DNA of 64,000 nucleotides from Yuukianura sp. NJ FZ-2021. Lineage: Eukaryota. Position numbers and translations under genes: made by a program. How positions within the stretch are numbered: position 1 is the first letter of the stretch; each line of letters begins with the position of its first letter. The stretch lies in NCBI GenBank assembly GCA_046563655.1, contig CM102289.1, positions 3,906,001 through 3,970,000 of the forward strand. Direction: 5' to 3'. Below, piece after piece: positions 11,601 to 59,665 of the stretch. A model generated the notes under the pieces. The model did no database searches and had not been told where the DNA came from. It worked only from the letters and a program-made list of their open reading frames with translations.

Positions 11601-14532
11601 GGGTGACAGTGACGTTGTGTCTTTTGTTGGCACATTTTGCCTTGTGACAGAAAGTGCGTAGAGTGGAGCGTTACCCCGTTGCGGGAGTTATTGATCCGGA
11701 AGGAGGTTTCGGGGCAAAAGGTTTCCCTCCTTTTAGATTTGTTGTGCCTTGAGATCGAGTGTCTCCTCCTTTGACGTGCGTGTGTCACTTGTACAAGTCT
11801 CGATCTGCCTGCCCTTGCCACTGGCTTCCGGAATGGGGTCAGAGGGAAGAATGCGGGAGATTTGAAATCTGGCGCTTGATCTCCTGACACCTCATTGCAC
11901 ACAATGGGATCCAGATGAACAATTAGAGTCCTCATCAAACCACTTACTTGGGAACCAATTAACACTTGAGAGTGTGCCAAAGTTACTGCGTGGTTGCTTT
12001 CTAATTAAGGCGCATGTGTAACAACTTTTGACGCATTTTATTCGCATTTTTTTTAAACGAAAACAATGTAGCTGGTTGTTTGTATTTCCTCGGTTGAAAG
12101 TCCGTTGACCTTAAAAACTTAATTACATGGGCGCTCCTTCCTTGTATGCGGTTTGTTTGTCGAATTTTAAATTTAGGAAACTCTTCCGGGACTTCTTTAT
12201 GCCTTTCAACTAAACTTTTTAACCAGCTAAAAATCGCTTTTAGTAACAGCAAAGCTAGAGGGAATTTCCTATATCAAGAGCACATGCCGGCAAATACTGT
12301 CCATTTGAAAAAAAATCAACCAATCGTACAACATAAAAATTTACAAAAAAAAAACAGAATTTTTGAATCAGTTCTAATGCCTTTTTGCAATTTTTCAACT
12401 CAAGTCAGTCCATTTTGGTTTCAAATTGGTGAAACTTCTCGAGTGGGATTTGTCCATCAAAGAGATTGGTTGCTGTGTGTTTGACAGGATATGAAGTTTC
12501 TAACGTTTGAAAGATTGTAAGTTTGTAAGGCTTGTTTTGTAAGTTTGTAAGATTCAGTGACTTTGTTGAGCCAAAAAACACGCTGTGTAGGATACAATAT
12601 GTTCGAGACGTTAACAGTGGATGTATCGAATGTAAAACAAAAGTTTGACGCTGTCGGCCCCTGACTGGTTTCTTATTATTTCAAATCCCCAACGTCTGTC
12701 TCCACTCGTCAGTTTCCCTAACTGAACTTTGACTTGAGCCGCCGACGCTCTCTGTTTATTTTCCAGTGACAAAACAACTTCGCAAAAGTAATGGAATGGC
12801 TCAAGTTTCACACTTTCCAAATGAGATTTCCCGGCTTTCAAAGAAAAAGCCAAAGGAAATTTACAATTTCCATGAGAGTAATAAGGTGCCAAAGCCGTAA
12901 TGAACAAACTGTTCAACCGTGATTCTGATTATAACTCCAAAGTTTATAAATCAAAGAAATTTTACACTCTTTTGGCACGGAGCCAGAGATTAAAAAATTC
13001 AGACATTTCCACTACCACTACTAAATCTCCGGATTTTTTAATTTCTAAATCTAATATATTTTGTTTTCCTTTCGTGAAACTCCAATTGACTTTCAGTTTT
13101 AATCCAAACTTTTGATTCCAAGGTCCTTTGTGAATTTGGAAGTAAGGACTGACTGAAAATAAGTTCAGAAAAACTGGTGCTTAGTGTGGGAAGCATAAAT
13201 AGGATGTGCTGGAATTCGGAGTGCATCGAGGTCACTTGTGATTTCATTAGTGGGAAAGAGTGGAATTAAGGAAGAATTAGTCATGTTCCGTCCAGACTCA
13301 AATTGAAATGAAAGTGTCCTCTTGCTTTTCCCAATCTCTAACTTTCTCTGCTAATCTGAAATGTCAGCCTAACGGAGCCCACCCGGGAGGCAGATGAGGT
13401 CGTAGGTGTTGAGAGAACCACTTAACCACTTTCTCATTAAGTTTTATGGGACCCACTTTAACAGAGACCCCACGAAATACTCACTTTTCAACTGCTCAAG
13501 CTGTCTCAACTTAATCCGAATTTAAGTGCGCACTAATTTCCTTCTTCTGCAGAAAGTTAGAAAGTAGAAAGTAGTGCGCAAGCTTTTCTAGTAGGATGTG
13601 CTTCACATAATTCAACTTGAGTCGTTTGTCATGGACTGCCAGATTCAAGTTATTCTAGCACTTTTAGTGCACAAAAAAATTAGTGTTTCTATTACATTTT
13701 TTTTTCGAAACTTCTAATTTTTCAGATTTTCTCTGAAGATACTTCTCAAAACAAGCCTGACCCCAGTGACCTCGCTCTTCTATACATCAGAAGGGCGAGA
13801 AAAATTGGAGTTTTGAGTTGAAACAACCAATTTTCCGCTACTCTCTCGTCTAGTCGTCCATCATTTTTCAATCAAAAACTTCCACTCTGTCACTTTTAAA
13901 TTTAATTAAGGTTATGATTTGGAAATAGCGGTCGTTGACCCTGCAGTGTATTTTGGGTGGTTATTTGGTAGATGATGGATGAATTCCATGTGCATTCTGT
14001 TCATCTCTCCATCTGCTCAAGGAGAGATGTTTGGCAGTGGAAGTGGAATTGACGTTTTAATGAGATGCTTCCGCACGAAGAGATGTATGTCTCCCCGTTT
14101 AACGTCTTTAGTTTACACCTGACATTCAATTTATCAACAGTCGAACATTCTCCTGCTATTTCTTGCCCTCACCCAACCACAACCACAATCCAATTCCAGT
14201 CTAACAACAACTCCAGTGAAATCACTTCTCAGTTTTAAAATACACATGGAAAGCAGTTTTTAAAAGATCCCACGGCTTCAAGCAGTGTACTACGCTAATG
14301 GTGTACGTACATTGTTTGGAAAGTTTCTTCCACTTTTGTGTAAAATACTAAAATATAAGAACTTTGTTTTGAAAGCAGTGAGACAGTGAGAGTGTCAGTA
14401 AAAGAAAGACAAAAAAGTGAAAGCTAAGCAGTCTCGTTATACTCAAACGCTTTTTGTTGTAGGTGCAGACTTCTGAAGTGATTGTTGAATAGATGGCGTC
14501 TCCGCGGAAGAATAACGTGACCTAAGCTAGGA

Positions 14533-17500
14533 ATGGATGGAAGTGAGATATTCTTGGATTTGGATCCGGAGGTCAAATTGTTCCTGCGGAACGCAAGCAG
14601 ATTGAATGGAACTTTTGGTTTGGCCGAACCGACCTTTCCAGCCTACGTCAGAACGATCTCCACCGTGTTTTGTACATTAATTCTTGGAATTGGTATCGTG
14701 GGGAATTCTCTCGTTCCGTGGGTCGTGTACAAGAACAAGGACTTGCGCAGTTCAACCAACATTTTCCTGGTCAACCTCAGCCTGGCTGACCTCCTTGTTC
14801 TCATCGTCTGCGTCCCCACAGGACTCGTGGAACTCCATACGGAACCTGAAGTATGGCTTCTCGGTCCAACGATGTGTAAGTACCAAATCGTTTTCATTCA
14901 AACGAACGTTTTCATTCATTCATACAAACTCCCTGGAATTGGGGCCTCCACGAGGTCTAAATTTTAATTTAAAAATGTCATAAATCTGCACAATTGTCCA
15001 GACAATAATTAAAACGCAGTCATACATTCTATCTATGAGAATTTTCGCAAAAAAAAAAATAGAAAAAGAAATTGGTTTTGATTCATTTTCATATTTAGAC
15101 TAAAAGTCAACCAAACCCTTACCGGTTTAATCAACTTTCTCTTCCTGCATGATTTTACTTTGCGCGTTTTGGGAAACTGCATTACCTCTTTTCTTTTTTT
15201 TTCGTTTTTTTTTTTAAATTCAAAAATTTTGAGGAAAAAGTTGTGAAATGTTTCTGTTTGGGCTCAGAGATGAAATTGTGAGAGGGAATGGATTAATTAG
15301 AATATTTCATTAAAGAGAATGTTGCTCATTTGGATTTTTAGTTCCTTTTCCTACCATATCCAGGGAACTATTCTCTCCATAATTCTATGAGAACGAGCGG
15401 CAGGGGACGTCTCATTTTTAGCTTCATTATAATGCGCAGGCATTTCCAAAATTGTAAAGGCGGCAAACAAAAGCAGTTTCAAAATTGAAAGCACAGAGGA
15501 AAAAAGGAGCCGGAGACTGAGAATGTTTATTTTTAGGAGGATCATGATTCACTGCCCTTGTTTCTCCTTTGATGAACATTTGATCTTAGTTTCAACATTA
15601 CTTTTCCACTTCAACAAGATTTGTAGTTTGTTCTATTTATGTTTGAAACATTTGGCAGGAATGAGAGTGACAGAAATTGAATGATTTGCGAGAGAAATGT
15701 ATAAGTAGAGAGATGCCAGTTAAAAGTGATTCCAACAGGTTTACGTTTCACTTTCTAATTCATAAAAAACTCATAATTTTTTTAGCAAATTAAATTGCAG
15801 TTTACAGAATGCAATTGAAGTGACGTGTTGTTTTATTTTTTACAAAAAATTGTGGGAAAAGTTAAACGTAGTTTAAAAACATTTCAAGTTATTTTTTTTT
15901 TTGCTAAAGGATCTGCCGACAGAGAGGTAGGTCAGGCGTAGGAAATGCACTTTACTGTTATTACTGCGTAGCACTTTACTATAATTTTAATCAGGATTGT
16001 CGTCACTCCTTGAAAGCTTCCGCCGTTTCGCTCGGAAATACTGAAAAAAGTGGAGTGGAACGAAGAAGAAAGTTCAGTAGGAAATTGTTGAAATCCTCCG
16101 AGTTACTTTCGCTTTTTTTTTGTAAATCGTTTGAGTCCATTTGTTTTATTTTTGGGAAGATGTTTCCTTTAGCCAAACGAAGAATCTGAAGTCACCCGAC
16201 GACTTTGTTTCGATTAAACGAAAATCCCATTTCCTTTCTGGAGTAATCGCAGAGGTTGATGGTTTTGAATTAGTTTTTATGTGTTCTAGATATGGCCATA
16301 ATTCTTGAAAGATGGGAGTCAGATGGAAAGTTTCACCTCAGGAACATCCTGATTCCTGAGTCATTCTGAATCGAAATTTTTTTTACGAGCACCAACTTTA
16401 TGTCCATTCGCTTTTTAAAAGCTGTTCGGAAGTGAGTTGCTGACAGGATCAATCATCATCAGTCACTCATCTCCATCCAGTTAAAGTTTATGACTAAATC
16501 AATAAGGACTCTTGTTCCTTTTCGAAATACATAGTTTCATCTTTCACCGACAAACAATTTTAGAAATAACATGCAGGACATGCAGCTATGCGTTCCAGAA
16601 GAAATAAAACTTGGCAAGGAAAAGTAAATGACCATGCGATGACTTGAACATAATGTTCAATGCCATTTTAGTGCTTTTTTATTTTTTGTAAGAGCCAATG
16701 AAAATTTTTATTTCAAATTGATCGCAGCAGCAACCCTGCTGGTTTTAATTGCTCAAAACAGTTTAAGTCGTAGGCTGCAGAATTTTCTGAAAGACATACT
16801 ACTTGACCAAAAGCTTCCAAAATTCGGTTGGGTTTGGTCAACCATGAAACGGGTTTTAGTCGAGGTTGCGTTGGCTTAGGTTATGTTTCAGATTCGGTAT
16901 CGCTCCAATTTCCACTTGACTTGTAACGACGCAAAAGTCACGTTTCGCATCGTGGTCTACGAATGTATTGCTCAATGGATTCCATTTCAAATCCAGACTA
17001 TGAAACTATTCCAATCCACTTTACTCCTCATCTCGCATTCGCACCACAAACGAATTCTAAAAAAAAAGCTCAACCAATCAAAACCTTGCATTTTCAATCA
17101 TTCCCACTCAATCTGTTCCATTTACTTGAAATTCGAAAGTTCAGTTGGAGAAAAAATTGCCTGAAACTTGTTTATTTTGTTAAACTTTGGCAAAAACTGT
17201 AAAAATGTTAGCAGCATTGGAGATTTCCTTTTGAAATCCATTTTAGGGAATGCGGTGAGAGGATGAGGTGTGGTATGGGTCTCATAAATGGAGCGACATG
17301 TTGACACCATGACATGACGAGTTCTTTTGAGCAACGTCCTTTTGCAGCAACTCTTGTGGAATACACAAAGATCGTTGGAGAGAGATTGGGTCCATTTCCT
17401 AAATCACTTTGGACGCAAGAGGGAGATTCAAAATTCCTCAGAGTCCCACAACACTTTGTCTCTTTACAAGGAAACAGAGATTGAGGGAGACTTAAAAGGA

Positions 17501-19928
17501 AATAAGGGCTACAAATGGTTACCAACATCTGCACAGACATGTCAACTCTTTCATTTAAGCGTTCACGCTTCTGCGCACCTCAATCCTCATTTGTCACTGC
17601 ACACCAAATCTAAAAACGAACAGTTTCATCTTATCTTGTCCCCGTCAACCGCATTCCCCTTGGTAGTCCACATGTTGTTTACTGCAACTGCAATGTGTCA
17701 CAGCATGACACAACGACAAAACGCTCTAATCTCTTTACCATTTGTTGCACTTTTAGTTTCACAAACAATTTTTCTTACGAAATCTAAACATCACCAAGAT
17801 CGAATTCAGAAAAAAATGGCGCCAGAGAGACACAAAAGTTATGTCGATACGCGTCATAGATAATTTGTTTTTTTTTAAATTCCAAAGTTTTTCTTTAAAA
17901 AAAAACGTCGTGAATTTTAGTTCGAGGTTTCCGGAGAATGGTTTGGCGACGATAACTTGGAATTTGCTGTGATTCGTGAGATATGGGAGCGATTGAATTG
18001 ATGTTTCCGTTTTAAGTGTTTTTCCATGAACACATTTAGTTTGTTGATGAGGCCATTCGGGTGCAACTGGAAGAAACAAAGACACTGGGCAAATGACATC
18101 CGACGCTACAGTCTACTTTCCGCCAAACTTCAAATTCCCTGCGGAGTGTTTGAGAGGGAGGGACAAATGGCTTTGAGTTGTTGTCATTCCATTCTTCCAT
18201 GAAATTAAAGTTTCCTTATTTGTTTCTTTTGCAAAAATAAGTTCAGGAATTTTCAACTTTCCAAATGTAATTCAATGAGATTGCTTTTTAACAGAACTTT
18301 CTAAAGTGGAATAAATTTTACTCAGCATGTAGCTAAAAAAAATTGTAAATTGATGACAGTGTTGTTTTTCATTTGCAGGCAAATTAGTCCCCTTCGCGGA
18401 ACTGTCTGTTGCGCATGCCTCTGTGTTGACAATCCTTGCAATTAGTTTGGAGCGATACATTGCCATTTGCCGGCCGTTGAGTGCCAACTACACTTGCACC
18501 AAACAGAGAGCAGTTGTCTTGTGCATCATCATTTGGATTTTTGGATTTGTTTCAACCAGGTTCTGTCAACACTCGTTTAATCACTCATTTCAAATCAATC
18601 TTTAATGACAGAAATCCTGTTCTAAATTGCTGATTTGTTTAAAATTGCAGTCCAATGTTATTAATTGCAACACACAAGGAGATGCCGTACATTGACAGAT
18701 CAATTCGCCCAGCCTGTCTAATGGAAGCTCGCCACTTTTGGTCAACGTTTTACTTTCTGTCATCTATTGCCATCTTCTTTTTTCTACCACTTTTTCTTCT
18801 CATTGGTCTCTACTGGGTCATCTCGCGCAGCCTCATGTCCGATCCATGCAACATTTCACTCACTACACGCTCTGATGTGAACGGAGAACATCCCAATATG
18901 AGAGCACGGAGACAGGTCTGAACAACTAATAAACCGGTGGTTTACGGGACGTGCATAAAGTAGCGAAAGATATTTTAACTTTTGACTTGAAAGTCATGCG
19001 GGGTCAAATATTTAAGACAAAAGTTGTCCGTCTGTATGAGAAGAATAAGTTTTGTATGCCATTTCCTATGGTAACGGGATCAAACCGGTAGAACCTGAGC
19101 CTTGACCGGACGGGAGTTGATCCAACAAGATAATACTAAATATTGAATATGCCGGAATCAACTTGTGCTGAACGGTCAGAGTTGAATCTTGGAAATCCCG
19201 GTTCCGAGATAATTCCCGCAAACGGACGGACAGCCATACAGACCGACATAAAGTAGCTTTCGCTATTTAATAAAAAGCATGTTACTTATAGGCATTTGTT
19301 AAAGTGTTGACACTGTGTTTTCGTTTAGGTCGTTGTGATGCTGGGCACCGTTGTGTTTTTCTTCTTCATATGTCTCCTTCCCTTCCGTATTTTGTCCGTT
19401 TACATCATATTGGCACCACCCACTACACTGGGAGCGATGGGGGAGGAACTCTACTACAACATCCTGTACTTCTCACGTCTCATGCACTACTGCAACTCCG
19501 CCATTAATCCCATCCTCTATAACGTCATGAGCTCCAAGTTCAGAACTGCGTTTCTCAAAGTCCTTGGCTGTCCCCGTAGATCCACTGCCGACAAATCACG
19601 GTGGCTCAGACGCCACCTCAGCTGCCAATCCACATTCACCACCACGTCCTCCACCCTTGTACATTCCAGTGTCAAGTCCAATGGGTTCCAAAGTGGACGA
19701 ATTCCTCGCCCAACTTACGAGTCAGGCAAAGGTGCAGCATCAGTACGAATTCAACAGTTCCGAGGCGGAACAACTGGCAGGCTGAATGGAACGCAGCTCC
19801 CGGGAAACAGTCAGCCGGATCGTCCGTTGCGACAAACCAAGTCGGACAGGATTTCAGAAGGATCTCGAGCTCCATTCGGCAACGTTCGGAAGAAAGTCTT
19901 AATTGTGCGAGCAAACAGCATCGTGTAG
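14533..19928 (+). CDS. ETHR: Ecdysis-triggering hormone receptor (class A GPCR); exons 14533-14875, 18379-18559, 18651-18915, 19329-19928
   Basis: NKDLRSSTNIFLVNLSLADLLVLIVCVPTGLVEL, CKLVPFAELSVAHASVLTILAISLERY, ARRQVVVMLGTVVFFFFICLLPFR, YYNILYFSRLMHYCNSAINPILYNVMSSKFR are characteristic of arthropod ETH receptors. Confidence 0.88.
18928..19268 (-). mobile_element. DINE-1/HINE-like (Helentron-associated) non-autonomous element in ETHR intron 3
   Basis: Subterminal IR aagtagcgaaag (18958) / ctttcgctattt (19257), terminal hairpin aagtagctttcgctattt, ggac/agac microsatellite remnant, core hairpin acaaaagttgt...agttttgt, and end aataaaccgg shared with the 34097 element. Confidence 0.7.
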
Positions 19929-20996: not shown

Positions 20997-21764
20997 TTAG
21001 TCAAAGGAGTATTTGGCTTCTTTGTAAATCCAGCATGAAAATATGATACCAATTAGCTGTAAAATCGCAACCGTAATTGCAATCGCTATTACAGAAAATG
21101 CGGCATTCTCGGTCATAAGCTCCTTTTTAATTTGATCAAAACAGCCGAAATCCGTGTACGAGTTGTCCGATGTTGCATTGTACATGCAATTTGGACTTGT
21201 TTGGTTCTTGCAGCAACTCGTTGGTACTTCGTAACGCAAAACTTCAAGATCAGGGATTCCTTTAAAGTCCGTTCCATTGTAGATTCCGCAGCAGTGCAAA
21301 TCGATCATAACACTGTCGATAAAAGTTGTTACGTTTCCGTCACGCTTGTAACGCCCAATCAAATTTTGTTTGAGGAGGACTTTAGTTTCTTCTTCCATTT
21401 GAGGTCCATAAATAAAGAAAACGAGAATCACTGCTACAATTTCCAAAATCAAAATAAGGCCGAGGAGAAAGGCGTAGAATCCTAGGAGAAATCGGGATTC
21501 TTTGATTGCTCCGCAGTATCCAAGGAAACTGAGCAGGAAGATGAAACCACCAAATGCAATTAGAACAAACGAAGCCTGTCGGAGTGCTTCCACAATGTTG
21601 TTTGACGCTTGTTCATCCGTTTCTCCTACTTTCTTCAACATTTCTTTGAAAACTCCATCTGCCTGTGGTTCCAAGGAAAACCAAATCCCAACGGCTAGTA
21701 TGGCTCCACCGATGAGCAGAAAGAGAAAGTTGTAGAAACAGAATAGGAATCGGACGCAGTTCAT
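20997..21764 (-). CDS. Tetraspanin, single-exon CDS
   Basis: Four TM helices, FLGYCGAIKES, CCG motif, PTSCC and GC in the large extracellular loop. Confidence 0.95.
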   Translation of the reverse strand: MNCVRFLFCFYNFLFLLIGGAILAVGIWFSLEPQADGVFKEMLKKVGETDEQASNNIVEALRQASFVLIAFGGFIFLLSFLGYCGAIKESRFLLGFYAFLLGLILILEIVAVILVFFIYGPQMEEETKVLLKQNLIGRYKRDGNVTTFIDSVMIDLHCCGIYNGTDFKGIPDLEVLRYEVPTSCCKNQTSPNCMYNATSDNSYTDFGCFDQIKKELMTENAAFSVIAIAITVAILQLIGIIFSCWIYKEAKYSFD

Positions 21765-23174
21765 TGCGCAGTCGCTGTCGTCCTCAGCTTCAAGGTATCT
21801 ATCAACTCTAAAGCAGAGACAAACTGTATGAATTTAATTAAAATTGTTTCTGTTTTATAAAAGTTTTACTTACGCGGATTTAAATTCCCGTGAAACAAAA
21901 TGTTGATTCAGCGTTCCTCTGCGTAGGTTCGCCACGATAATGAGCAAGTCAGACAGCAGGCTTCAACTTCTATTGCGGTTAGTTTAGGGTTTTGTTTTCC
22001 TGTCAAACGATGAGGTTTAGACGGTGTTTTCAGCTTTTAGGAAAAATTTGTTGTAAACTTCCTATGAATTGATGGCAAAACTTTGAGAGGATTCACGCGT
22101 CATTGCACTTCTTTTGCCATTCTAGGACGAACCGCATGGAAATTCTAGTAACTTTCAGTTTCGATAATTGTGGTGGTGGTTGTGAAACATCCTGGTACAC
22201 TATGAATAGACTTCGCAAGTGACTCACTTCCTAACTTGCAGAAACTTAGACGCGAAGATTATCATTTTGTTCTTTGCAATTCTCTTAACGTGCATGACGA
22301 CACTGGAGTTGGTTCTGAAGAATTTGTAGAGACGATAGGAATGGATGCTGGATAAGTCAAGACAAATGAACAAAGCATATGGGATAATCAATGCAGGACG
22401 CCGTCGCATTAACGAAAAATGGCATGCATGGTTATGGCCCACCGAAAATCCTTGAGTCCTAGAATGACTTCTAATGAGGCACGCCATGCAAGAAGTTCTA
22501 GTTACACCTCTCTCAATTTTTCGTGACAAATACTAATTATTTGTTAATCACACTAAATGGGCAGTCAAGAGCAGTCTTATTTTTTGCAATATTTCATTAC
22601 CGCTGCATGGAATTTTTTTTTTCAAAAATGACCTCCGCGAAAAAAAATAAGTCACAATTCATCTAAAAACAATACAAAACGCCTTCCTGCAATTTCTGGA
22701 ATAAAGATCTAAGGAGATCTAAGGATGACTTGGGCAGAATTTTTATTTCGTTTGGCATTGGGTTCTACTTCTACATCTCTACAAATCAAAGACTCTACAA
22801 ATGCAGCTTTGAACTTAAATGATAACATTTGTGAGCTTTAATTTTGAGGGTTTAGAAAAACTTAAGATTAACACAAATAAATTGAGTAACTATCTAATTC
22901 CAATTTAGTCAATTGTATTAACCGTTGTTTAGAATCGTTTGCTTGATGTAAACATTTGCATGTCTTTGTTTATGTTTTCGTAATAAGCTGCACTCATGGC
23001 TTAAAATAATCCCCTTGTTTGGAAACGATGAGAGACTTTTTTCGCAGTTGGACCAACTTCCTTGTGAAAGATGCCAAATGTTTGTTTTTGCCAAAAGTTC
23101 TATAGCAGAGCGTGCAGTGGTAAACAAGTTCAGAACAAAACAAAGTAGTTGCCAAGTTCCAGTGCTCGAAGGGG

Positions 23175-23181
23175 TATAAAA
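23175..23181 (+). promoter_or_regulatory. TATA box of microprotein gene copy 1 (twin at 25130)
   Basis: gtgctcgaaggggTATAAAAgtaga is identical in both duplicated copies, ~130 bp upstream of the ATG. Confidence 0.7.
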
Positions 23182-23308
23182 GTAGAACACAGACTTGAGT
23201 CTGCTAAATAACCAAGCAAGACCTTCGGCAGATAAGTCATTACAAAATCTGAGCGTCGCTGTTCGATTAAGACACAATAACTGTTTCTCAACAATCGTTT
23301 CTGCAGAA

Positions 23309-23807
23309 ATGGCAAGTTACTTTTCCTTAAATATTGATGAAACATTGCAAAAATTATCACGTAACAAAATTTTTTTATAATTTAGGACAAGCAAAATACG
23401 CCGCCTGCTCCAATTCCAGACCCTGGTAAGCTTGACCCAACTGTACTGAAAAAATTGTTAGGTGTTAATTTTCACGTTGATTAAACAAGTTTTTTTTTAC
23501 TCTCCTTCACGTAAATAGGAAGAACTTCTTTCTTTAATGCTGATGCCAAGCGCATGTCATTTGGAACGCAAGACACAATGTTTGACTACAAGGCTTCTCC
23601 ATCGCTTTCATCGTTTTTGGGAACTCGCGGAATATTCAAACCAGAAGGTACTGCACCCATTTGGTGAAATCGAAAATTTCAAGTTGTATGAAACGTAAGC
23701 AATATGTTTAATATGTTTCAGGAGATCCATTGACATCAATGGCTTCCGCTACGCGGCGGGATAGTTTGAAAACGATGGCCGTCTTCTCGGATTTTAGCAC
23801 TGATTGA
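23309..23807 (+). CDS. Uncharacterised 85-aa microprotein, copy 1; exons 23309-23311, 23386-23425, 23519-23647, 23722-23807
   Basis: Splices to MDKQNTPPAPIPDPGRTSFFNADAKRMSFGTQDTMFDYKASPSLSSFLGTRGIFKPEGDPLTSMASATRRDSLKTMAVFSDFSTD*. First intron is GC-AG; TATA upstream and AATAAA ~110 bp downstream; frame conserved in the paralog. Confidence 0.8.
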
Positions 23808-25258
23808 ACATTCATTTTCAGTTTGTTCTTTTTTTTGTAACCGCTTTGGGTGTATTTAATTTTTATTGTTGGCGTTAGTAATTTATTAGTTAGCATTTCA
23901 AATGGATTAATCGCACAATAAATATTATAGTGACTGAAAATACATTGAAAAATATTTCATCCTTTCTTTAATTTTAATATTGATTTTCTCGATGTGTTGA
24001 GTAAAGCCATTACAGTCTAGTTGAATATACAAGATGTACGAAATATATTATCCAATTCCTCCAGAGTTTTCTGCAATCTAGGTATTAAGTTCGGTTAGTT
24101 TGTGGTACATGTCATTGTTATTTTGAAGGAATTTGCCGTTTTCAATGTTAGTTATGGCATGGCTGAAGTTGCGATGGCACGCTATAGTCAACAGGCAGTC
24201 CTGCTTAAGATTTAAGATAAGTTCTTTAATTCAGCAATTAACCATCGCCAACTCAGCAGCCGAATCTTGGCAAAAAATGGAAAATATTTGTGTTCTTTTT
24301 TTCGCATTCCATTGTTAAATCGAATCTCACCCTCACTTTCGCCATATTTGTCTCTTGTTTGAATTTTAGCGCTGGAAAAAAACTGAATTCTTTTTGTTTT
24401 TGTGTGCGCAGTAAGGTTTAACGACATCCATTGTATCCACATGGCGTCGCCATTCCCCATTTTGGTTTGCTACAATAGGTGGCTGCCTCTAAGTGGCAAC
24501 ATATGTAGCCGCTTCAACATAACCTAACGTAACTTTAAGTGGCAACATAAGTTTTGAGGCGCAGTGAACAATGAATGACGGAGTGGCTATACTGTGCAGC
24601 CACAATGATGATCGATAAACCTTAACCCAACCAGGCTTTGCGAAGAGCGAGTACTAATAAGATAAACTCATGCACGTGAACAACATGTAATAACAAAAAG
24701 TTATACGTTATCGAATAGTGACTCATGCAGTACTAGTGATTATGATTCTGTTATTGACATTCACGTAAAATACTGGTCAGTTTCCAGTATTTCAACTCAA
24801 AAAAGCGAATGCAACTTCATTAGTGATACGCGTGGATCATCAAGGTCTACTGTTTTTAGTTTTAGTATTGTCAGTAAACATAACTTTTGCTCATGTCATG
24901 TCAGTATAACACAGATGAGATGAGTGTCACTGAATAATCTTTCACGTGAGAATTAAGTAAAAATATTGGTTGGTTAAGTATTTCTTCACGTGAGTATTAA
25001 ATGAAAGCTTTTTTTTGCGAAAAGCCACTTAATAAGATGAGTCAGTGCTCTGCAGTTCTAAACATGTTCAGAACAAAACAAATTATAGTTGCAGTGTTCC
25101 AGTGTTCAAAGTTCCAGTGCTCGAAGGGGTATAAAAGTAGAGGCACAGAATTAACTCTGAAAAGCAAATAGTAAGTCATTCTCATTACAAAATCTGAGCG
25201 ACGCCTTTCGATTTCGATTAAGAAGCAGTGCTGTTTCTCAACAATCGTTTCTGCAGAA

Positions 25259-25743
25259 ATGGTAAGTTACTCTTCCTTAAATATTAATGAAACGTACTAA
25301 AATCATCACGGAATTCGTATAATTTAGGACAAACAAAATACTCCGCCCGTTCCAGTTCCTGAGCCCGCCAGTAAGCTTGACTCAAATATGTCGGAAAAAT
25401 TATTTAGGTGTAAATTTTCAATTCTTTAAGCAAATTTTTGTTAGTTTCCGTTACGACATTTCAGGAAGACCTTCTTTCGTCTATGCTGATGCCAAGCGCA
25501 TGTCGTTTAGCTCGCAAGACCCAATTTATGACTACAAGACTTCTCCGTCACTTTCATCGTTTTTGGGAACTCGCGGAATAGTCAAACCAGAAGGTATAAT
25601 ACACAGCCTTTTCTGGAATCAAAAATTTCAAATTGTAGCAAACTAGTAACAATGTTTGTGTTCCAGGAGATTCAATGGCTTCCGCTACGCGGCGGGTTAG
25701 TTTGAAAAATATGGCCGTCTTTTCGGATTTTAGCACTGAATGA
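25259..25743 (+). CDS. Uncharacterised 83-aa microprotein, copy 2; exons 25259-25261, 25328-25370, 25465-25593, 25667-25743
   Basis: Splices to MDKQNTPPVPVPEPARRPSFVYADAKRMSFSSQDPIYDYKTSPSLSSFLGTRGIVKPEGDSMASATRRVSLKNMAVFSDFSTE*. All introns GT-AG; TATA and AATAAA present. Confidence 0.85.
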
Positions 25744-26262
25744 ACATCATTTTCAGTTCTTTTTTTCTATCCGCTTTTGGCCTATTTAATTTCGATGGTT
25801 GGCTTTAGTAATTTATTAGTTAACATTTAAAATGGATTAATCTCATAATAAACATTATAGTGATTGAGGAAGTCATTGCACGACATTTCGTGGTTTCTTT
25901 ACCTTTAAGTGCCGTTACTGTAACTTAAGTATTTTGTGCACGTTACTTTAAGAGCGAGTAAAAGAATAGACTAATCGTAGCTGAACTGAATTTAATCTTT
26001 CAATTTCAAGCTCAACACTAAAAAGTGCGCCATGGTGAAAACTTTTCTTTTTCTAGCATTTGCAAAGCAATGGAATTTATTCAGATACATACAGTGTTTT
26101 TATGTTTCGCTACTGAAAGAATCTTTAGAGAAGATCAAAAACTGAGTTAGTATGTTCTTTCATAAATAATTTATGTTTCTAAAGTTATTAAGCCCATAAT
26201 TATTCAAATCACACATTGTTCGTAGCAGTTTTTCTTATAGAAATAGAACTATTGCAAGATTC

Positions 26263-27417
26263 TCACTCCGCGTCGTCATCAGCAGCACCTTCTCCCTTGA
26301 GAGCGATGACCCACCCTGACCTTGGCTGAAGCGAATCCCCACCTTCCCCTATTTCCATGCCCATTGACCCCGCCAACATCACCGTCTTGTATTCTTTTCC
26401 ATTGTCATCCACTATGACATCCACTTCAACAATTCCCGGTGGAATGTCATTTGTATCAACGAGTGCCCACTCCTTGTCTTCCTGGAAGTCTCCTTGGAGT
26501 TTCCCGTCTTTGTCAAAAAGACAAAAGTTCGTGATCCACCCACTGAGGTAAGTGGGGCCAGAGCCACCGCCCTCATAGTGACAGATTCGATTCCAGAATT
26601 CCTTATTGGCATTCCCACGTTTTGCATTGACAAATTCGTCTAGTACTGGCTTCAGCATCTTTCCCCAATCCTTGAGTCTGTAAGTATCCAACTTGTCCAG
26701 TCGACGACGAATGTTTTCCCAGTCTTCAACAGTACCATCCAAAGTGACTGTTGGAATTCCGCAGCACAGGCAGAACTTGTAATCGAAATACTTTTTCATC
26801 GCGGCCATAAACACGACACCGGAGGTCACGAGGTCATCTTTAGTAGTTGTTGAGAAATTGGGCATAATCCAGCCCCGAACTTCAGGATCAACCAAATTTT
26901 TGTCTATTTCTTTCTCCATTTGACCCACGAGATCGCTATACGAAACGCTAAACAGGGTTCCTGTAAACATAAATTCTCGGTTCAATTTTGAAATTCAAAA
27001 TTACAATTTTGAAAAGAATTAAAAAAAAGTACCAGTTGTGTAAACTGTCAGTTGTTTTTTTCCTTGGAAACTGACAAACTTGCTTCTAAATTCCTCTGCC
27101 CTTGCATTTAGATAGAACGAAAACTGGGTCATGATGGAAAGCCAGACGTCATCGGGACGGAGGATAAGATGGTGATGTTCATTGTAAGCCTTGGTAACGG
27201 CATCTACGAATCCATTGTTGGCTGGAATAATGTTTTTGCTGGGGAAAGTCGTTCCTTGGATAATTTCACCGCATTTAGCCTGTTGATAAATTTTTAGCTG
27301 TAGAGCGACGTGTCCAGTTCCTTCTTTTGATCGATGCAAGTCTACCCTCTTTGCATCCACGTCTGAGACATTGAATGTCGTTAGATATGGTTCCTGCTTA
27401 GCCACCTTTGTTTCCAT
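26263..27417 (-). CDS. DUF4419 domain protein; exons 27417-27033, 26960-26263
   Basis: NGFVDAVTKAYNEHHHLILRPDDVWLSIMTQF, PNFSTTT, CGIPTVTLDGTVEDW, GGSGPTYLSGWITNF match DUF4419; one 72-bp GT-AG intron joins the two ORFs in frame. Confidence 0.88.
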
Positions 27418-27833
27418 CTTAACACACAAAATTTAGGGCGTAAAGTTGCTGAAACTGTTCTGTTATGAGTTTGTTTTGATGCGACTCTTTAAATAAACTT
27501 CCACTGTGTATGGTGTTTAACAAGTATTGCAGAAAACGAAAATCAGACGAGCACAACTTACGTGTTGCTTTTGGAACTAAAAAATACTGGAATATATTAC
27601 AGCAAAAAATGAATCACACAAGGTCTGTATAGAAACTACAAAAACGAAAATGAACAGGAACACCGTATAGCGAAAGCGATGCAGAGTAGAATCCTATGCA
27701 ATTCATATTACAATATTACATATTCACATAGCAGATGGTGCTGAAGGCTATAGTATAGTATACTCAAGTGAAAAATGAGTCATGCATTTCTGCAAAATCG
27801 AATTTCCATTGAGAAAGGCAACTGTACGACCTA

Positions 27834-29234: not shown

Positions 29235-30116
29235 CAATACGCCGGAAAGTACGAAAGTAGCGTGAGATGGCGCTGCATTCGCCGGACTGCTGTTCAGAAC
29301 AGGACTTCATGGTTAGCCATATTATAATTCTGAACGAAAAATAAAGAAGGTTGACCTTTGGCACAGAAGAAGGTCCCAGTCACATACCATGCACAAAAGT
29401 TGTTGACCTGGATGACAGGTTCCAGGTCATAGCCGCCAATCCAAAAGCGGCCAATCCCATAGGAGCCAATCAATAGCGGCCAATTTCTAAAGCGGCCAAT
29501 CCCTTAGCGGCCAATCCTAAAGCGGCCAATTTCTAAAGCGGCCAATTTCCAAAGGCGCCAATTCCTTAGCCGCCAATCCTAAAGCGGCCAACGTCAATAG
29601 CCGCCAATAGTTAAAGCCGACAAAATTAGAAACTGCTGATTATAACTTAAGGTAATCACCCTACGAAGTAATTCACATTAACGTGACCTAACCAAACCTA
29701 ACCTAGGTTAATCAAGCATAACACAACCTAAATAACCTAACCTGATTAAATTAAAACTCGTTTCTAGTTTTGTCGGCTTTAGAAATTGGCGGCTATTGAC
29801 GTTGGCCGCTTTAGGATTGGCCGCTAAGGAATTGGCGGCTTTAGAAATTGGCCGCTTTAGAAATTGGCCGCTTTAGGATTGGCCGCTAAGGGATTGGCCG
29901 CTTTAGAAATTGGCCGCTATTGATTGGCTCCTATGGGATTGGCCGCTTTTGGATTGGCCGCTATGACCTGCTACGGGATGACATAAACAACATTTGTGTA
30001 TGCTATTTTCCATGTTAACGGGTACAAAACTGGGTAACCAACCTTGACCTTTGGCCCGGCAGACAGACATAGAGACAGACAGACAAGGTCAAACCAACAA
30101 TTAGCTTACGCTACTT
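29235..30116 (-). mobile_element. DINE-1/HINE-like element interrupted by a MITE (left end approximate)
   Basis: Subterminal IR aagtagcgtgag (29255) / cttacgctactt (30105), (agac)n microsatellite, core hairpin acaaaagttgt...acaacatttgt split by the insertion. Confidence 0.7.
29418..29975. mobile_element. 558-bp foldback MITE, ends GGTTCCAGG...CCTGCTACG, 8-bp TSD, arms built of tandem repeats
   Basis: ~210-bp inverted arms (29423-29633 / 29760-29970), each with 12 copies of a ~15-16-bp GCCAAT unit; TSD GGATGACA at 29410-29417 and 29976-29983. Confidence 0.93.
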
Positions 30117-34096: not shown

Positions 34097-35140
34097 ATAA
34101 ACCGGTTGTAAACCGCCCATACTGATAATAGCGAAGCAATAGTCCCCCCGAAGGGGGTTTGTTCCCCCCACTTTCCCGCCTCCCCCCCCCCCCCGGGGGG
34201 AGTAAGGGTGTGTTTTCCCCAGTTTCCCGCCCCCACGAGGAGTAGGGGTGTGTTTTCCCGCTTTTTTGCTCCGCACCCCAGGAGGCGCGGGGGTGTGTTT
34301 CCCCCACTTTCCCGCCCCCCCCCCTCGGAGTAGTGGGGGTGTGTTCCCCCCACTTTCCCGCCCCCAGGGGGTTTTGACAGGTCAGACGTGACAGCTGAGG
34401 CGTGACAGGTGACACCCGGCAAGTGACACTTGAGGGTGACAGGTGACACGTGGCACGTGACAGGTGACACCCGGCAAGTGACAGGTGACAGGTGACACCC
34501 GGCAAGTGACAGGTGACAGGTGACAGGTGACACCCGGCAAGTGACAGGTGACAGGTGACACCCGGCAAGTGACAGGTGACAGGTGACACCCGGCAAGTGA
34601 CAGGTGACACCCGATATGTAACAGGTGACACCCGGCAATTAACAGGTAACAGGTGACACCCGCCAGGTGACAGGTGACACCCGGCAATCAACAGGTGACA
34701 GGTGACACCCGGCAAGTGACAGGTGACACACGGTGGACACAGTGCATAAGTGTGTAAAGTGTATATGTCAACTGCGTAATAGATTTTTTGCTAAGCAGAG
34801 AACCAAGTCCCATGCCAATTGCCTTTGCAGTCTCACAAGCAGAGTTTTTGTTACACACACTTGCATTACAAATGACCTTTGAAATCCATTTTGACCCGGA
34901 AGCAGGTGACCTAGGGTCACACATTACACACAAAAGTTGTTCCCCTCGATGAGATGAACAACTTTTGTAGAGGTCATTTTCCATGTTACCTGGGATGAAA
35001 CCGGTTGACCTTGACCTTTGACCCGGAAGGAATTGACACCCGGGGGTCATATTCAATAGTGACCAAGCCCGGGTCATGACATGGTCACTGGTGAAAACCG
35101 GAATCAAATCGGACCAGTAGTTTCTGAGATAATTAATCCG

Positions 35141-35175
<35 letters not shown>

Positions 35176-35235
35176 GGACGGACGGACGGACGGACGGACA
35201 GACAAACCTCTTTTATCATAATAGCTTCGCTATTA
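34097..35235 (-). mobile_element. DINE-1/HINE-like element with central tandem repeats
   Basis: Read on the minus strand: 5' hairpin aatagcgaagctatt, (GTCY)n microsatellite 35142-35203, core atctcagaaactactggtccgatttg, central tandem arrays, 3' subTIR cttcgctatt, 3' stem-loop cggtt-tac-aaccg, T-rich end. Confidence 0.82.
34143..34730. repeat. Compound minisatellite: ~4-5 G/C-run units (ggggtgtgtttcccccactttcccgcccc), then a 7/14-bp array (caggtga / cacccggcaagtga)
   Basis: Directly visible periodicity at 34143-34372 and 34403-34730. Confidence 0.95.
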
Positions 35236-38900: not shown

Positions 38901-41900
38901 CCTCAGTTACTTGCCTTACATTTGCTTCCCTATATATGTCTGTTATTTCAATCCAAAACACGTTAAAAGTTACTATTATTACAACAAAGTTACACTGTAC
39001 AAGGTCCTATTCCACTGTAGATAATGTCTAGCAAGTCTTTGTAACCACCAACAATTAGTATTTGAGTCTTTTAGTAGATTTAATTACTACTTTTCTGGAT
39101 TTAGTACTTACCAAATGCTCATGATATTGTAGGGAGCCCAGCAGCAGACAAATGTAGACACTATGACAACTGTCATTTTCAAAGTCCTCACTTTGGCTCG
39201 TCCTAGCGTTCCTATGTTTGATCTTCGGATGTCATCACCTAGCAATCACAAGTCAAAAAATACAGCGAATGTCACTTCCAAAGAATCCCACAACACAAAA
39301 GTCTCCGTTTTCGAGAAAAACTTCATTTTCCTAATTGGAAATTGCGCCTCTGTTATCTGTTTCAACTGCTGAAAGCCATTTGCTTTAATTAACTTTTTCT
39401 TTGCTTTCTTCCTTCACCTTGTTCAGATTTTCTTTGTGTTCCACGTACTAAAAAAAACCCGTAATTTATAAACTTCCAGGAATTGCAGCATTTTATGAGC
39501 GAATTTTGAATACTTAATTGTTTATACTGCTATTATGAAGTACTTGTGGAAATAATCTTTAGCTTTCAGTAGCTAATTGATTCCACTTCATGTAATGGGT
39601 AAGAGAGAAATTAGTGCAAATATTTACCATAAGACATGGGGGCATATTTCCCGGAATTAATTTGTAAGAGGTGAAGAGATATTAGGGTTATCCTTGGAAA
39701 ATATAATAAATTTTGAACTTTGCGCTAAAATTCTACTAATGAAATACATGAGGAATTTTGAAGTAACTTAAGGCAACAATACTTCAAAAGAAGCTTATCA
39801 GTTACTCTTTACGCAACAGCATTAATTGCTTTGGATCATTTTGAACTTCGACCGTTGCCTTACCTCTTCTGTGGATCCGATGGATATTATAAATTTCTGA
39901 GAGGATCCACGAGTAGCAATAGATGATCATGACAAGTGGGAATCCGAACATAACTGCACAACTGAATATGGAGTAGCCCACTTCGTAGGATTTGGATGGA
40001 AAAAAGTTGAATGTCACACATTGTTCGTACCATTTGAACTTCGGATGACGCTCCACGTGGAAGATGGCGGCCTTGGAAAAAAAGAAAGGATTCTCATCTG
40101 AGACAATAATGAAATGTTTTCTATAAGAATCTAGCATAAAAGCAAATTCTATTCTACTTTCTATTTATTTTACACTTCAGGGTTAGAAAACGCTCTTTTC
40201 TTTTAGTTTATTTTCTTTTGAATTGTGCACTTTGGGGTAAAATTTAATCAAAGCTAGAATCCTATTTTAATGCAATATGTCATTGTAATTCTCAGAAAAT
40301 ATTAATGTGAAAGGTTTCTGTTTGAAATCGGATTGACATTTACATCAAAGCAAAAATTTCCGGAATCAACAACAAAAGAAACCTAGAATTCACAATGTAA
40401 TTAAGAAAACAAACGAACTGTATTATAACAGTGGCATAAAAAAAAACTCAGAAAGTTATTAAAATAGACAGATCAAATGAAGGGTGACGTGCCCTTTTGA
40501 CCTTCGGTTTTTACAGAAGTATGTGGTTATTCCTATCATTCAACGCTCCAGCCTTTGTCATTATGGCCACTTATTCCTACTAACTTCCTTTAAGATTACT
40601 ACTCCTTTTGATCAATCTTTCTTTGATTTCGTGACATGAAAAGAAAGTTTTAGTTCCTTCACTCATCAAGTTCAACTTTGTAGAAGATAGAACTTAATTA
40701 GCCATTATGGATTTCATGATAGATACTTTTCTCACAGCAAAATCATTGAAGTCTTACACCTTCTCATCTTCTATCCTCATAAGCTGTAATTGATTGCATC
40801 GATTTTCTCAGATTTAGGAGGAAGAAAATGCTTACTTGTGGTAGGCTAAAAATAACGCTGCTAATCCATGCAGCCGCTAGCATCATTCTGCCTCTGTGAT
40901 TTGCTTCCGGAAGAGTAAGGGGTTTGAGGACTGCAAAATAACGATCCCAACTGATGCAAACCAAAAGAAGTCCAGACAGGTATAGCCCAAATGTACGAAA
41001 AAAAGATAGCACGCGACAGGCCAAGTCACCAGCAGTCCAGTAGACAGTGGCAGCCCAACCAATCTAAATAAAAGAAAGTAAAAAAAAGGAAAGAAGAAAG
41101 TATAGAATAGACTGATTAGGTTGGCCGGGAAACGAAAGGATGTAAATTCGGTTTCAGAGGAAAATTCAATTTGCGATTTCGTCTCTATGGTTATATAGTT
41201 CACTTTTTTTACTGTGCAGTTGCTCGTATTAATTTTTCGAGTGTTGCCCTTAGAAACTGCTTAAGTTGAAGTAAGGCAATCACTTCCACATGTATCCATA
41301 GCTACTCGATCGTTCTGCGTATACTTATTTTGTTTATTTCAAAGCAAAATTGAGAGTGCTTTCTATTAGTCTTCATCTCAAGAACTATCATTTTCGTGAT
41401 CCGATTGTGAGCTTTCTTCCTAGTCGTTAATAATTGGATTGATCGGATTGTGAACAAATGTAAATAGCTAAATTAACTATACTCTTTCGAGCGATACAAC
41501 ATGGCTGTTTTTCAAACAAAAATTGAAAAGTGAACGGTGAAGGTCAAATGTGAAAGGCCACACAGGGGTGGATTAAACCTAATTGACATACATTGACACT
41601 TCTGTTTGTTATCGCAGGTCTCCTCACGGCTGACCATCATATTTCTTTCTCTGCATGAACTCTTAGGTTTCGGAATTTTGGGAAAATCAAAATACTCGGT
41701 AAATGGTATATCCTATTTTAGGAAAGAAGTATTTTGTGAAATAAGGCCTTACATGTTTTCCGTCAACCTAACAGGATTCTAGGAGTGACGCTTGAAAAAT
41801 ACAATTACAACTACACAGTAAAAAAAAGAACTTACAATTCTCATATCAGGCATGTTTGCGACACAAGACAGTGGAACGTTTAGGTGGTTCGGTTGGTTGT

Positions 41901-58636: not shown

Positions 58637-59363
58637 TAATATTCAAATAAGCGTACTTTATCATCGTTAAATTATTATCCTAACCTGACGATTGAGGTTA
58701 CGACTCTTACCGCACTAACTGTTCCAACTGTTTTTTCACTAATAGAAAGCATTTGTGTAAAGTATTATAAATTATTAAACCGCCATAGTGAAATAGCAGT
58801 TTGGCATGTAGCGTGCTATATGCCATTTTATGTTGTTGTCTGAGAGTCGCTAACTTTGGCAGTAAATCTGTAATTAATTATCGCTATTTCAAAAATAGGA
58901 AGGATATCATATATCATTTTTCCCGTATCGTAATACGGGAAGTATTCTAACCCTTGACCTGTCAAGGCGATTTTCTACTTTTTTCTCTAGACCAGACGGG
59001 AAATAATTGATTTCAACAAAAATTTTGAAGCCATTTTTGACAGGACGAAAGCGGTTTTTTTTTCGCTTTGTAAAGCCCAGTTCACACACCAACCGCCATT
59101 TTTACGTATTATTATTTTAATCAGCGGTCAATCTGAACCTGGCTTAAGCGCCATGTTTTTTTTCCTTGGTGGCATCAAAATTTCAGCTTCCAAATTTTGC
59201 GAAACCAACCGCCTTATTTCCCTTCTAGTCTAAGAAAAATTAAAATTCTTTGACCTACACTATCTCAGCATGCGGTAGTTATAAGAACGGATATCGCAGC
59301 TCATCTCTCATCCGTAGAGCTTGGCAGAGGCGGAGAGAATTGTTCTCGTGTGAGAAAACTAAA

Positions 59364-59665
59364 AGTCTTAGAGGTGTGTGAAATGCAAGTTTTAGAGGTG
59401 TGTGAAATGCAAGTCTTAGAGGTGTGTGAAATGCAAGTTTTAGAGGTGTGTGAAATGCAAGTTTTAGAGGTGTGTGAAATGCAAGTCTTAGAGGTGTGTG
59501 AAATGCAAGTTTTAGAGGTGTGTGAAATGCAAGTCTTAGAGGTGTGTGAAATGCTAGTCTTAGAGGTGTGCGAAATGCAAGTCTTAGAGGTGTGCGGAAA
59601 GTAATACCTTTAGACGTGTGCGAAAGTAGTAGACGTGTGTGTAAAGTGTTAGACGTGTGAAAAGT
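59364..59665. repeat. 24-bp minisatellite (tagaggtgtgtgaaatgcaagtYt), ~10 copies decaying rightward
   Basis: Direct periodicity; alternating gtct/gttt variants. Confidence 0.95.

Follow-up and report, generated by a model that had tools for sequence, protein, structure and literature searches.

A 64,000-nt stretch of the genome of the springtail Yuukianura sp. NJ FZ-2021 (assembly GCA_046563655.1, contig CM102289.1, positions 3,906,001-3,970,000 of the forward strand), referred to here as the window, contains a tandem pair of short genes with four coding exons each, on the plus strand at 23113-25867 (all coordinates are those of the window). These are probably real protein-coding genes. Comparison of the two supports a pair of intact, separately bounded four-exon copies in which the exons, the splice sites, the TATA block and the poly(A) signal are preserved against a background of decay in introns 2 and 3 and in the flanks. 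The pair looks like an unassigned small-protein family, that is, lineage-restricted short coding genes in tandem, likely real but ordinary. The explanation that fits best, in which the tandem-duplicated coding genes produce multi-site substrates of a basophilic kinase and phosphorylation switches the binding of a partner, is possible as a whole, at somewhat less than an even chance.

The duplication is directly visible in the DNA. When positions 23100-23960 were compared with the window by blastn, the segment at 23113-23937 was found to recur on the same strand at 25051-25867, with 77.7% identity over 860 alignment columns, and nine co-linear direct-repeat blocks link the copies at a spacing of 1930-1955 nt. 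The initial annotation, which had been made from the letters of the window, placed the duplicated segments at 23125-23935 and 25065-25866; these coordinates are correct to within ~15 nt. Similarity between the copies extends from ~60 nt 5′ of the TATA box to ~15 nt 3′ of the AATAAA signal, and the duplicated, conserved unit therefore corresponds to one complete transcription unit. There is no third DNA copy in the 64-kb window (the remaining blastn matches are 32 nt or shorter, with E of 0.16 or higher), and tblastn with both predicted proteins found no third paralogue in the same 64 kb (next best E=0.82).

What does each unit contain? In copy 1, an upstream block at 23113-23186, which includes repeat blocks D7 and D6, carries the TATA box TATAAAAG at 23175-23182. 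It is followed at 23187-23308 by a putative 5′ untranslated region (UTR) with a putative transcription start site and no upstream ATG. The gene model joins 23309-23311, 23386-23425, 23519-23647 and 23722-23807, giving 85 codons and a stop. The first coding exon (23309-23311) is the ATG alone, followed by a GC donor (ATG/GCAAGT) that opens a 74-nt GC-AG intron 1 (23312-23385). Exon 2 (23386-23425) encodes a Pro-rich N-terminal segment; an in-frame TAG lies directly upstream at its acceptor, so there is no read-in to exon 2 from intron 1. Intron 2 (23426-23518; 93 nt, GT-AG) is followed by exon 3 (23519-23647), which encodes a weakened first motif, GRTSF (RTSF at 23521-23532), the motif KRMSF (23548-23562) and the invariant block SPSLSSFLGTRGI. 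After intron 3 (23648-23721; 74 nt, GT-AG), the coding part of exon 4 (23722-23807) encodes RRDSL (23754-23768) and the invariant C-terminal block MAVFSDFST, ending with the stop codon TGA at 23805-23807. The 3′ UTR (23808-23937) has AATAAA at 23917-23922.

Copy 2 has the same layout. Its upstream block (25051-25141) carries TATAAAAG at 25130-25137, its putative 5′ UTR (25142-25258) likewise contains no upstream ATG, and its model joins 25259-25261, 25328-25370, 25465-25593 and 25667-25743 into 83 codons and a stop. The ATG-only first coding exon (25259-25261) is followed here by a GT donor (ATG/GTAAGT), and introns 1 (25262-25327; 66 nt), 2 (25371-25464; 94 nt) and 3 (25594-25666; 73 nt) are all GT-AG. 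Exon 2 (25328-25370) is 3 nt longer than in copy 1, and its last base opens the first Arg of RRPSF, the remainder of which is encoded at the start of exon 3 (25370 plus 25465-25478). Exon 3 (25465-25593) also encodes KRMSF (25494-25508) and SPSLSSFLGTRGI. The coding part of exon 4 (25667-25743) is 9 nt shorter than in copy 1 and encodes RRVSL (25690-25704) and MAVFSDFST, with TGA at 25741-25743; AATAAA lies at 25847-25852 within the 3′ UTR (25744-25867).

All six intron boundaries are homologous between the copies, with the exon 2 donor displaced by the 3-nt exonic indel. Both the 33-nt block around the TATA box and the 32 nt that end with the start ATG are identical in the two copies, and no upstream ATG occurs in the 127 nt (copy 1) or 122 nt (copy 2) that precede the start codon. 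The architecture initially described for each copy (a TATA box, an ATG-only first coding exon, three short introns and AATAAA, for proteins of 85 and 83 aa) is therefore confirmed, with introns of 66-94 nt. Introns of this size are normal in this genome, since a neighboring, Pfam-supported DUF4419 gene has a 72-nt phase-1 GT-AG intron (27032-26961). The feature that the initial annotation did not mention is the GC donor of copy 1 intron 1, the one exception among six introns of which five are GT-AG. The remaining bases of this donor are at consensus (GCAAGT). Introns of the GC-AG type form a known minor class in which the rest of the donor follows the consensus closely. The integrity of copy 1 depends on use of the GC-AG intron: unspliced, the frame stops inside intron 1 after ~23 codons, and an alternative GT donor 4 bases downstream would leave exon 3 in a frame with three stops. 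The GC donor could mark either a functional GC-AG intron or a first step in the decay of copy 1.

The two upstream regions are not the same. The copy 2 promoter has a 17-nt insertion (25086-25102), a second occurrence of the GTTCCAGTG...AAG element found immediately 5′ of the TATA box and possibly a duplicated factor-binding site. Three of the nine CACGTG E-box cores in the window (24673, 24943 and 24987) lie within 320 bp upstream of copy 2, in the region 24673-24992, and two of them sit 44 bp apart in a direct repeat, TTCACGTGAG. There is no CACGTG E-box upstream of copy 1. Because the E-boxes occur upstream of only one of the two genes, the paralogues may differ in their regulation.

The evidence for coding potential begins with the reading frame. 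After splicing, the frame that starts at the first ATG of the predicted transcript runs without a stop for 85 codons in copy 1 and 83 codons in copy 2; at the base composition of the window, a run of 84 open codons would arise by chance with a probability of ~0.003 per copy. In exon 3, no frame other than the predicted one stays open in both copies. Pooled over ungapped columns, the copies differ at 28 of 246 positions in coding exons and at 65 of 229 positions in introns (Fisher p=3e-6). By segment, identity over ungapped columns is 80%, 88% and 94% in exons 2, 3 and 4, respectively; 85%, 61% and 73% in introns 1, 2 and 3; and 79% and 87% in the 5′ and 3′ UTRs. Hence the earlier statement that introns have diverged further than exons is correct for the introns as a whole and for introns 2 and 3 individually, but not for intron 1. 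The two indels between the coding exons, of 3 nt and 9 nt, are both in frame, as had been noted at the outset.

Substitution patterns between the copies point in the same direction. Over 82 aligned codons, the Nei-Gojobori method gives 12.0 synonymous (Sd) and 18.0 non-synonymous (Nd) differences, a synonymous divergence (dS) of 0.248 and a non-synonymous divergence (dN) of 0.102, for a dN/dS ratio (omega) of 0.41 with a bootstrap 95% interval of 0.20-0.95; omega was at least 1 in 2% of replicates. Substitutions fall at codon positions 1, 2 and 3 in the ratio 9:5:16 (chi-square p=0.045). Exon 2 contains five synonymous changes and three conservative replacements. The initial annotation had proposed purifying selection partly because many of the changes appeared to be synonymous, and had suggested dN/dS as a check. 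Synonymous changes do occur, but they are outnumbered 18 to 12 by non-synonymous ones, and with an omega of 0.41 and an interval that wide, purifying selection on the protein is weakly supported.

The predicted proteins lack Cys, Trp and His and are rich in Ser/Thr and Pro. Both are hydrophilic throughout, with mean Kyte-Doolittle values of -0.58 (copy 1) and -0.57 (copy 2), and their net charges are near-neutral (0 and +2, respectively). No transmembrane-like segment was found in either protein (the highest 19-residue Kyte-Doolittle means are 0.15 for copy 1 and 0.21 for copy 2), nor a signal-peptide-like N-terminus, the first 20 residues averaging -0.96 and -1.16 by hydropathy alone, with no dedicated predictor. 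These profiles agree with the initial view that both are absent. For exon 3, AlphaFold2 with a two-row alignment returned no confident fold (mean predicted local distance difference test score, pLDDT, 62.7; predicted template modeling score, pTM, 0.20).

The motifs that first drew attention to the pair, RRPSF/GRTSF, KRMSF and RRVSL/RRDSL, are present and spaced as originally described, with the first one weakened in copy 1. Copy 2 has three strict matches to [RK][RK]x[ST][FLIVM] (RRPSF, KRMSF and RRVSL), and only 1 of 200,000 residue-shuffled versions of this protein contained three or more. In copy 1, two matches are strict (KRMSF and RRDSL) and come in addition to GRTSF (RTSF); at least two arose in 177 of 200,000 shuffled versions. 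The Ser and the hydrophobic residue at +1 are kept at all three sites in both paralogues. The longest stretches that are invariant between the paralogues, SPSLSSFLGTRGI (exon 3) and the C-terminal MAVFSDFST, are distinct from the basic motifs. R-R-x-S-hydrophobic is the textbook consensus of protein kinase A (PKA), much of which is shared by PKG, Aurora and CaMK-type kinases.

Do these proteins have relatives? The searches used single-exon peptides of 24-42 aa, which lowers sensitivity, such that moderately diverged orthologues could be missed. No Pfam family matched any of the four exon peptides at E≤10, a profile search of PDB sequences with exon 3 was empty at E≤10, and the ESM Atlas gave no usable match to either exon 3 peptide. 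Language-model “recognition” values for the exon 3 peptides are low (1347 and 1420), which is not informative on whether the gene is real. In a word-indexed collection of 5.8 billion proteins, copy 2 exon 3 had one word-sharing candidate among proteins of 75-2000 aa, with none scored, and the exon 3 alignment had no candidate among proteins of 23-74 aa. Searches of JGI metagenome contigs with exon 3 and exon 4 patterns gave 213 and 318 matches, none of which was confirmed by tblastn. A substring search of full-text literature with peptide words from the proteins found no match, and the parts of papers accessible through a topical literature search contained nothing on such a protein.

One search did return strong scores. 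A phmmer comparison of exon 3 with 1.84 billion cluster representatives gave 18 matches, all to proteins of 705-6241 aa with up to 16 matching stretches each, the best with E=6.8e-39. Of the 17 scanned with Pfam (P0016, of 6241 aa, was left out), 15 are bacterial surface proteins with MBG_2 repeats, while P0018 has no family and P0019 only DUF5607. A single MBG repeat aligns with exon 3 over 25 residues, with 12 identities and 29 bits. These matches were rejected as chance resemblance because the E-value sums near-identical repeats of which a single stretch scores 29 bits. Thus, the initial statement that the family cannot be assigned still holds after searches of Pfam, the PDB, the atlas and the large protein and metagenome collections, and no credible match to a known protein family emerged. 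How much weight should this carry? The DUF4419 exon provides a gauge of lineage coverage: its best match, in JGI contigs, is 71%-72% identical, and its best named matches, from Orchesella cincta, O. dallaii and Folsomia candida, are 55%-57% identical. The lineage of the window is therefore poorly represented in databases, and the absence of relatives is weak evidence that the genes are true orphans.

How might the pair have arisen, and what might it do? A local tandem duplication of one whole transcription unit, from promoter to poly(A) site, would have produced two paralogous genes that are independently transcribed. Each gene would produce a cytosolic protein of 83-85 residues without a stable fold, best pictured as a string of short conserved blocks: a Pro-rich N-terminus, three basic-basic-x-Ser-hydrophobic sites, the invariant SPSLSSFLGTRGI and, at the C-terminus, MAVFSDFST. 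Up to three Ser residues could then be phosphorylated by a basophilic Ser/Thr kinase that prefers a hydrophobic residue at +1; PKA would fit best, with PKG, Aurora and CaMK-type kinases also possible. Up to three phosphates would shift the near-neutral net charge to a clearly negative one, and this shift could act as a switch for the interaction between these two invariant blocks and a partner protein. Transcription, splicing (including use of the copy 1 GC donor), translation, phosphorylation and the existence of a partner are all inferred from sequence here. If the genes are indeed coding, the chances that their products act as kinase substrates are about even, and PKA-type phosphoregulation is plausible.

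Several observations weigh against this explanation. The omega interval extends nearly to 1, and the selection estimate rests on one pair of paralogues. A frame control gives a weak signal, with 8 of 24 changed codons synonymous in the predicted frame versus 5 of 24 and 1 of 22 in the others; for exon 3 alone, the predicted frame (3 synonymous and 10 non-synonymous changes) does no better than another (4 and 9). Conservation in the 3′ UTR and intron 1 matches that in the coding exons, and the similarity of the exons may therefore partly reflect RNA-level constraint or gene conversion. Copy 1 combines a non-canonical GC donor with the loss of one Arg from the first motif and, given both, may be decaying. 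The basic-basic-x-Ser-hydrophobic motif is common to many basophilic kinases, and a dibasic-Ser pattern by itself is insufficient to show phosphorylation. Lastly, no orthologue was found in the protein collections and metagenome contigs searched.

There are alternatives to both halves of the explanation, the coding genes and the kinase sites. The coding half would be wrong if the duplicated segment were a spliced long non-coding RNA unit, or a segment kept similar by RNA-level constraint or gene conversion, in which the frame is incidental. Such a unit would account for the level of conservation in the 3′ UTR and intron 1, the weak frame-specific signal, an omega interval that extends to 0.95 and the failure to find a homologue in any protein collection searched; the low language-model values could be cited as well, uninformative as they are on gene reality. 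It would leave to chance a frame of 83 or 85 codons that stays open from the first ATG across three splice junctions in both copies. Similarly, both exonic indels preserve this frame, 16 of 30 substitutions are at third codon positions, and exon 2 has five synonymous and three conservative substitutions. In addition, nothing in 21800-26300 matches Rfam at E≤1, and tRNA scans are likewise empty. A non-coding origin is thus rather unlikely. From the phmmer matches, exon 3 could be read as the remnant of a horizontally acquired bacterial MBG-domain adhesin repeat, given 18 matches with a best E of 6.8e-39 and MBG_2 in 15 of the 17 proteins scanned. The scores sum up to 16 near-identical repeats, and by our own scaling the 29 bits of one stretch are far from significant in a library of 2.4e11 residues. 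Moreover, only ~25 of the 72 domain positions are covered, the Pfam MBG_2 model is silent at E≤10, and KRMSF is not shared. This reading is effectively refuted.

The other alternatives accept the genes and reinterpret the motifs. In a real coding pair, the motifs could serve another role, as part of a disordered stress or “hero”-type protein, a scaffold or a kinase decoy; the basic pairs could contribute to charge patterning, to nuclear or membrane targeting, or to sites for another class of kinase. This draws on the same gene-structure evidence as the kinase-substrate explanation, it fits the observation that the longest invariant blocks lie outside the basic motifs, and it fits the tolerance in copy 1 for loss of an Arg in motif 1 and a change from V to D at -1 of motif 3. 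Against this, the triple five-position pattern of copy 2 is very rarely reached by shuffling, and the Ser and +1 hydrophobic residue retained at all three sites of both paralogues are more readily explained by a kinase site than by plain charge patterning. Another role for the motifs has an appreciable probability, clearly below one half. Alternatively, KR and RR could be convertase cleavage sites in secreted, processed peptide precursors, an idea encouraged by the dibasic pairs themselves and by the presence of two peptide-type G protein-coupled receptor (GPCR) genes in the window. Neither protein has the signal-peptide-like N-terminus or the hydrophobic segment that secretion would lead one to expect, the dibasic pairs are not preceded by a Gly that could serve as an amidation donor, and the GPCR genes are not adjacent to the pair, all of which makes a peptide precursor very improbable.

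The proteins resemble several known systems in general character. ARPP-19/endosulfine and inhibitor-1/DARPP-32 are small, disordered, multi-site PKA substrates and regulators in which the sites act as phospho-switches. The predicted proteins are similar to these in size (~80-120 residues), in having no fold and no signal peptide, and in their basic-basic-x-Ser/Thr sites, but there is no sequence relationship, and Pfam reports no family at E≤10. The hallmark of endosulfine is an FDSGDY core; the endosulfine/ARPP-19 core FDSGDY does not occur in the translations, which contain only FDYK and YDYK, and there is no Pfam match. Inhibitor-1 is recognized by a protein phosphatase 1 (PP1)-docking [RK]-x-[VI]-x-[FW] sequence plus a Thr site, and the RVxF-type docking pattern is written more generally as [RK]-x(0,1)-[VIL]-{P}-[FW]. 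Membership of the PP1 inhibitor-1/DARPP-32 group was rejected: KRMSF, RRPSF and RRVSL do not fit RVxF, because the V/I/L position is occupied by Met or Pro, or the F/W position by Leu, and no Pfam family matches. 14-3-3 mode-I sites and the AMPK-type consensus were also rejected, as their defining positions carry residues that do not fit.

Another point of comparison is PKI, the heat-stable inhibitor of PKA, which carries Ala at the phospho-acceptor position (P0) and acts as a pseudosubstrate. Like PKI, the predicted proteins are small, disordered and of the heat-stable type, with an Arg-Arg-x-x-hydrophobic element for PKA recognition at their core. They differ at the acceptor, where PKI has Ala and all three motifs here have Ser; the motifs are therefore read as substrate sites, and membership of the PKI family, for which there is also no Pfam match at E≤10, was rejected. 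For a cluster of sites, an analogy is the tri-phosphorylation motif of vertebrate cardiac myosin-binding protein C, in which three PKA sites jointly switch a binding interaction. It too has three RRxS/KRxSF-type PKA sites in a short disordered stretch, but that stretch is a linker in a large Ig/Fn3 muscle protein, whereas the pair would encode stand-alone microproteins, and homology is not expected. The resemblance to the bacterial MBG domain (YGX type, PF18676) is limited to the 25-residue stretch of exon 3, with 12 identities to the start of a repeat; ~25 of 72 positions are matched, and the PF18676 model has no match at E≤10. Finally, lineage-restricted short coding genes in tandem duplicate are a common category in arthropod genomes, and the pair shares with such orphan genes a length below 100 codons, the lack of a Pfam domain and of a homologue in broad databases, and a local tandem duplicate. 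What sets it apart is its multi-exon structure, a first coding exon reduced to the ATG and a triple kinase-type motif of unusual clarity.

What would be the implications of the kinase-substrate explanation? In its boldest form, which is doubtful, the genes would encode springtail-restricted, possibly recently born “triple phospho-switch” microproteins, stand-alone, disordered and only 9 kDa in size, whose sole job is to be phosphorylated at three sites by a PKA-type kinase. They could buffer the output of cyclic-nucleotide kinases in a tunable way or serve as a decoy for it; alternatively, they could be a phospho-dependent clamp on a partner bound by SPSLSSFLGTRGI and MAVFSDFST. The duplicates would already be diverging in the strength of their sites, copy 1 having a GC donor, a weaker site 1 and Asp at -1 of site 3. 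If expressed, the pair would be a clear case of a microprotein family that is lineage-restricted and unannotated, from a poorly sampled group of hexapods. The sequence makes a specific and cheaply testable prediction, namely three PKA-type sites and two invariant docking blocks. The pair also illustrates an annotation hazard, since the combination of an ATG-only first coding exon and a GC-AG intron defeats many gene finders. It opens no long-standing question and is currently a well-formed prediction rather than a discovery.

The immediate neighbors of the pair, all Pfam-supported, are a tetraspanin gene on the minus strand (20997-21833) and the two-exon DUF4419 gene, also on the minus strand (26263-27432), whose two open reading frames match profile positions 1-62 and 61-303. 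Further out are a rhodopsin-type GPCR gene on the plus strand (14521-19928), which resembles endothelin, orexin, neuropeptide Y and galanin receptors, and, ~14 kb from the pair, a second GPCR gene on the minus strand that spans at least 39802-41063 and resembles receptors for gonadotropin-releasing hormone (GnRH) and vasopressin. The GnRH/vasopressin receptor class includes the arthropod adipokinetic hormone (AKH) and corazonin receptors. The pair had been described as lying between two neuropeptide GPCR genes; both are indeed seven-transmembrane and peptide-receptor-like, but they are not its neighbors, as the tetraspanin and DUF4419 genes intervene. Nothing supports a functional tie between the GPCR genes and the pair. 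The window also holds chitin-binding, matrixin, GMC-oxidoreductase and XendoU exons recognized by Pfam; with the affinities of the DUF4419 gene, these exons indicate an arthropod genome, most probably that of a springtail.

Several other features of the window lie outside the pair. After the springtail sequences, the closest named relatives of the DUF4419 gene are from oomycetes, fungi and protists (~45%-50% identity), a patchy distribution that could be explained if Collembola acquired the gene by horizontal transfer long ago. A 15-nt unit, AGCGGCCAATCCTAA, and its reverse complement make up two tandem arrays (29429-29608 and 29770-29965) that face each other as an inverted pair ~160 nt apart; they could represent a palindromic satellite or the two ends of a mobile element. 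GC-rich minisatellites at 34153-34729 and 35141-35204, with periods of 21, 28, 35, 46, 49 and 63 nt, are based on GTGACAGGTGACAC and are followed by a (GACA)16 run, resulting in long, spurious minus-strand open reading frames. A 24-nt tandem repeat (59363-59620; 9.7 copies, 95% match) likewise has open frames on both strands. The window also contains intronless F-box genes at 6171-7745 and 50199-51896 on the minus strand and at 60177-61708 on the plus strand. Over 498 residues, the first two share 58% identity; a leucine-rich-repeat match is also present in the first, and the third looks related by eye, such that the three loci appear to be a locally dispersed family expansion.

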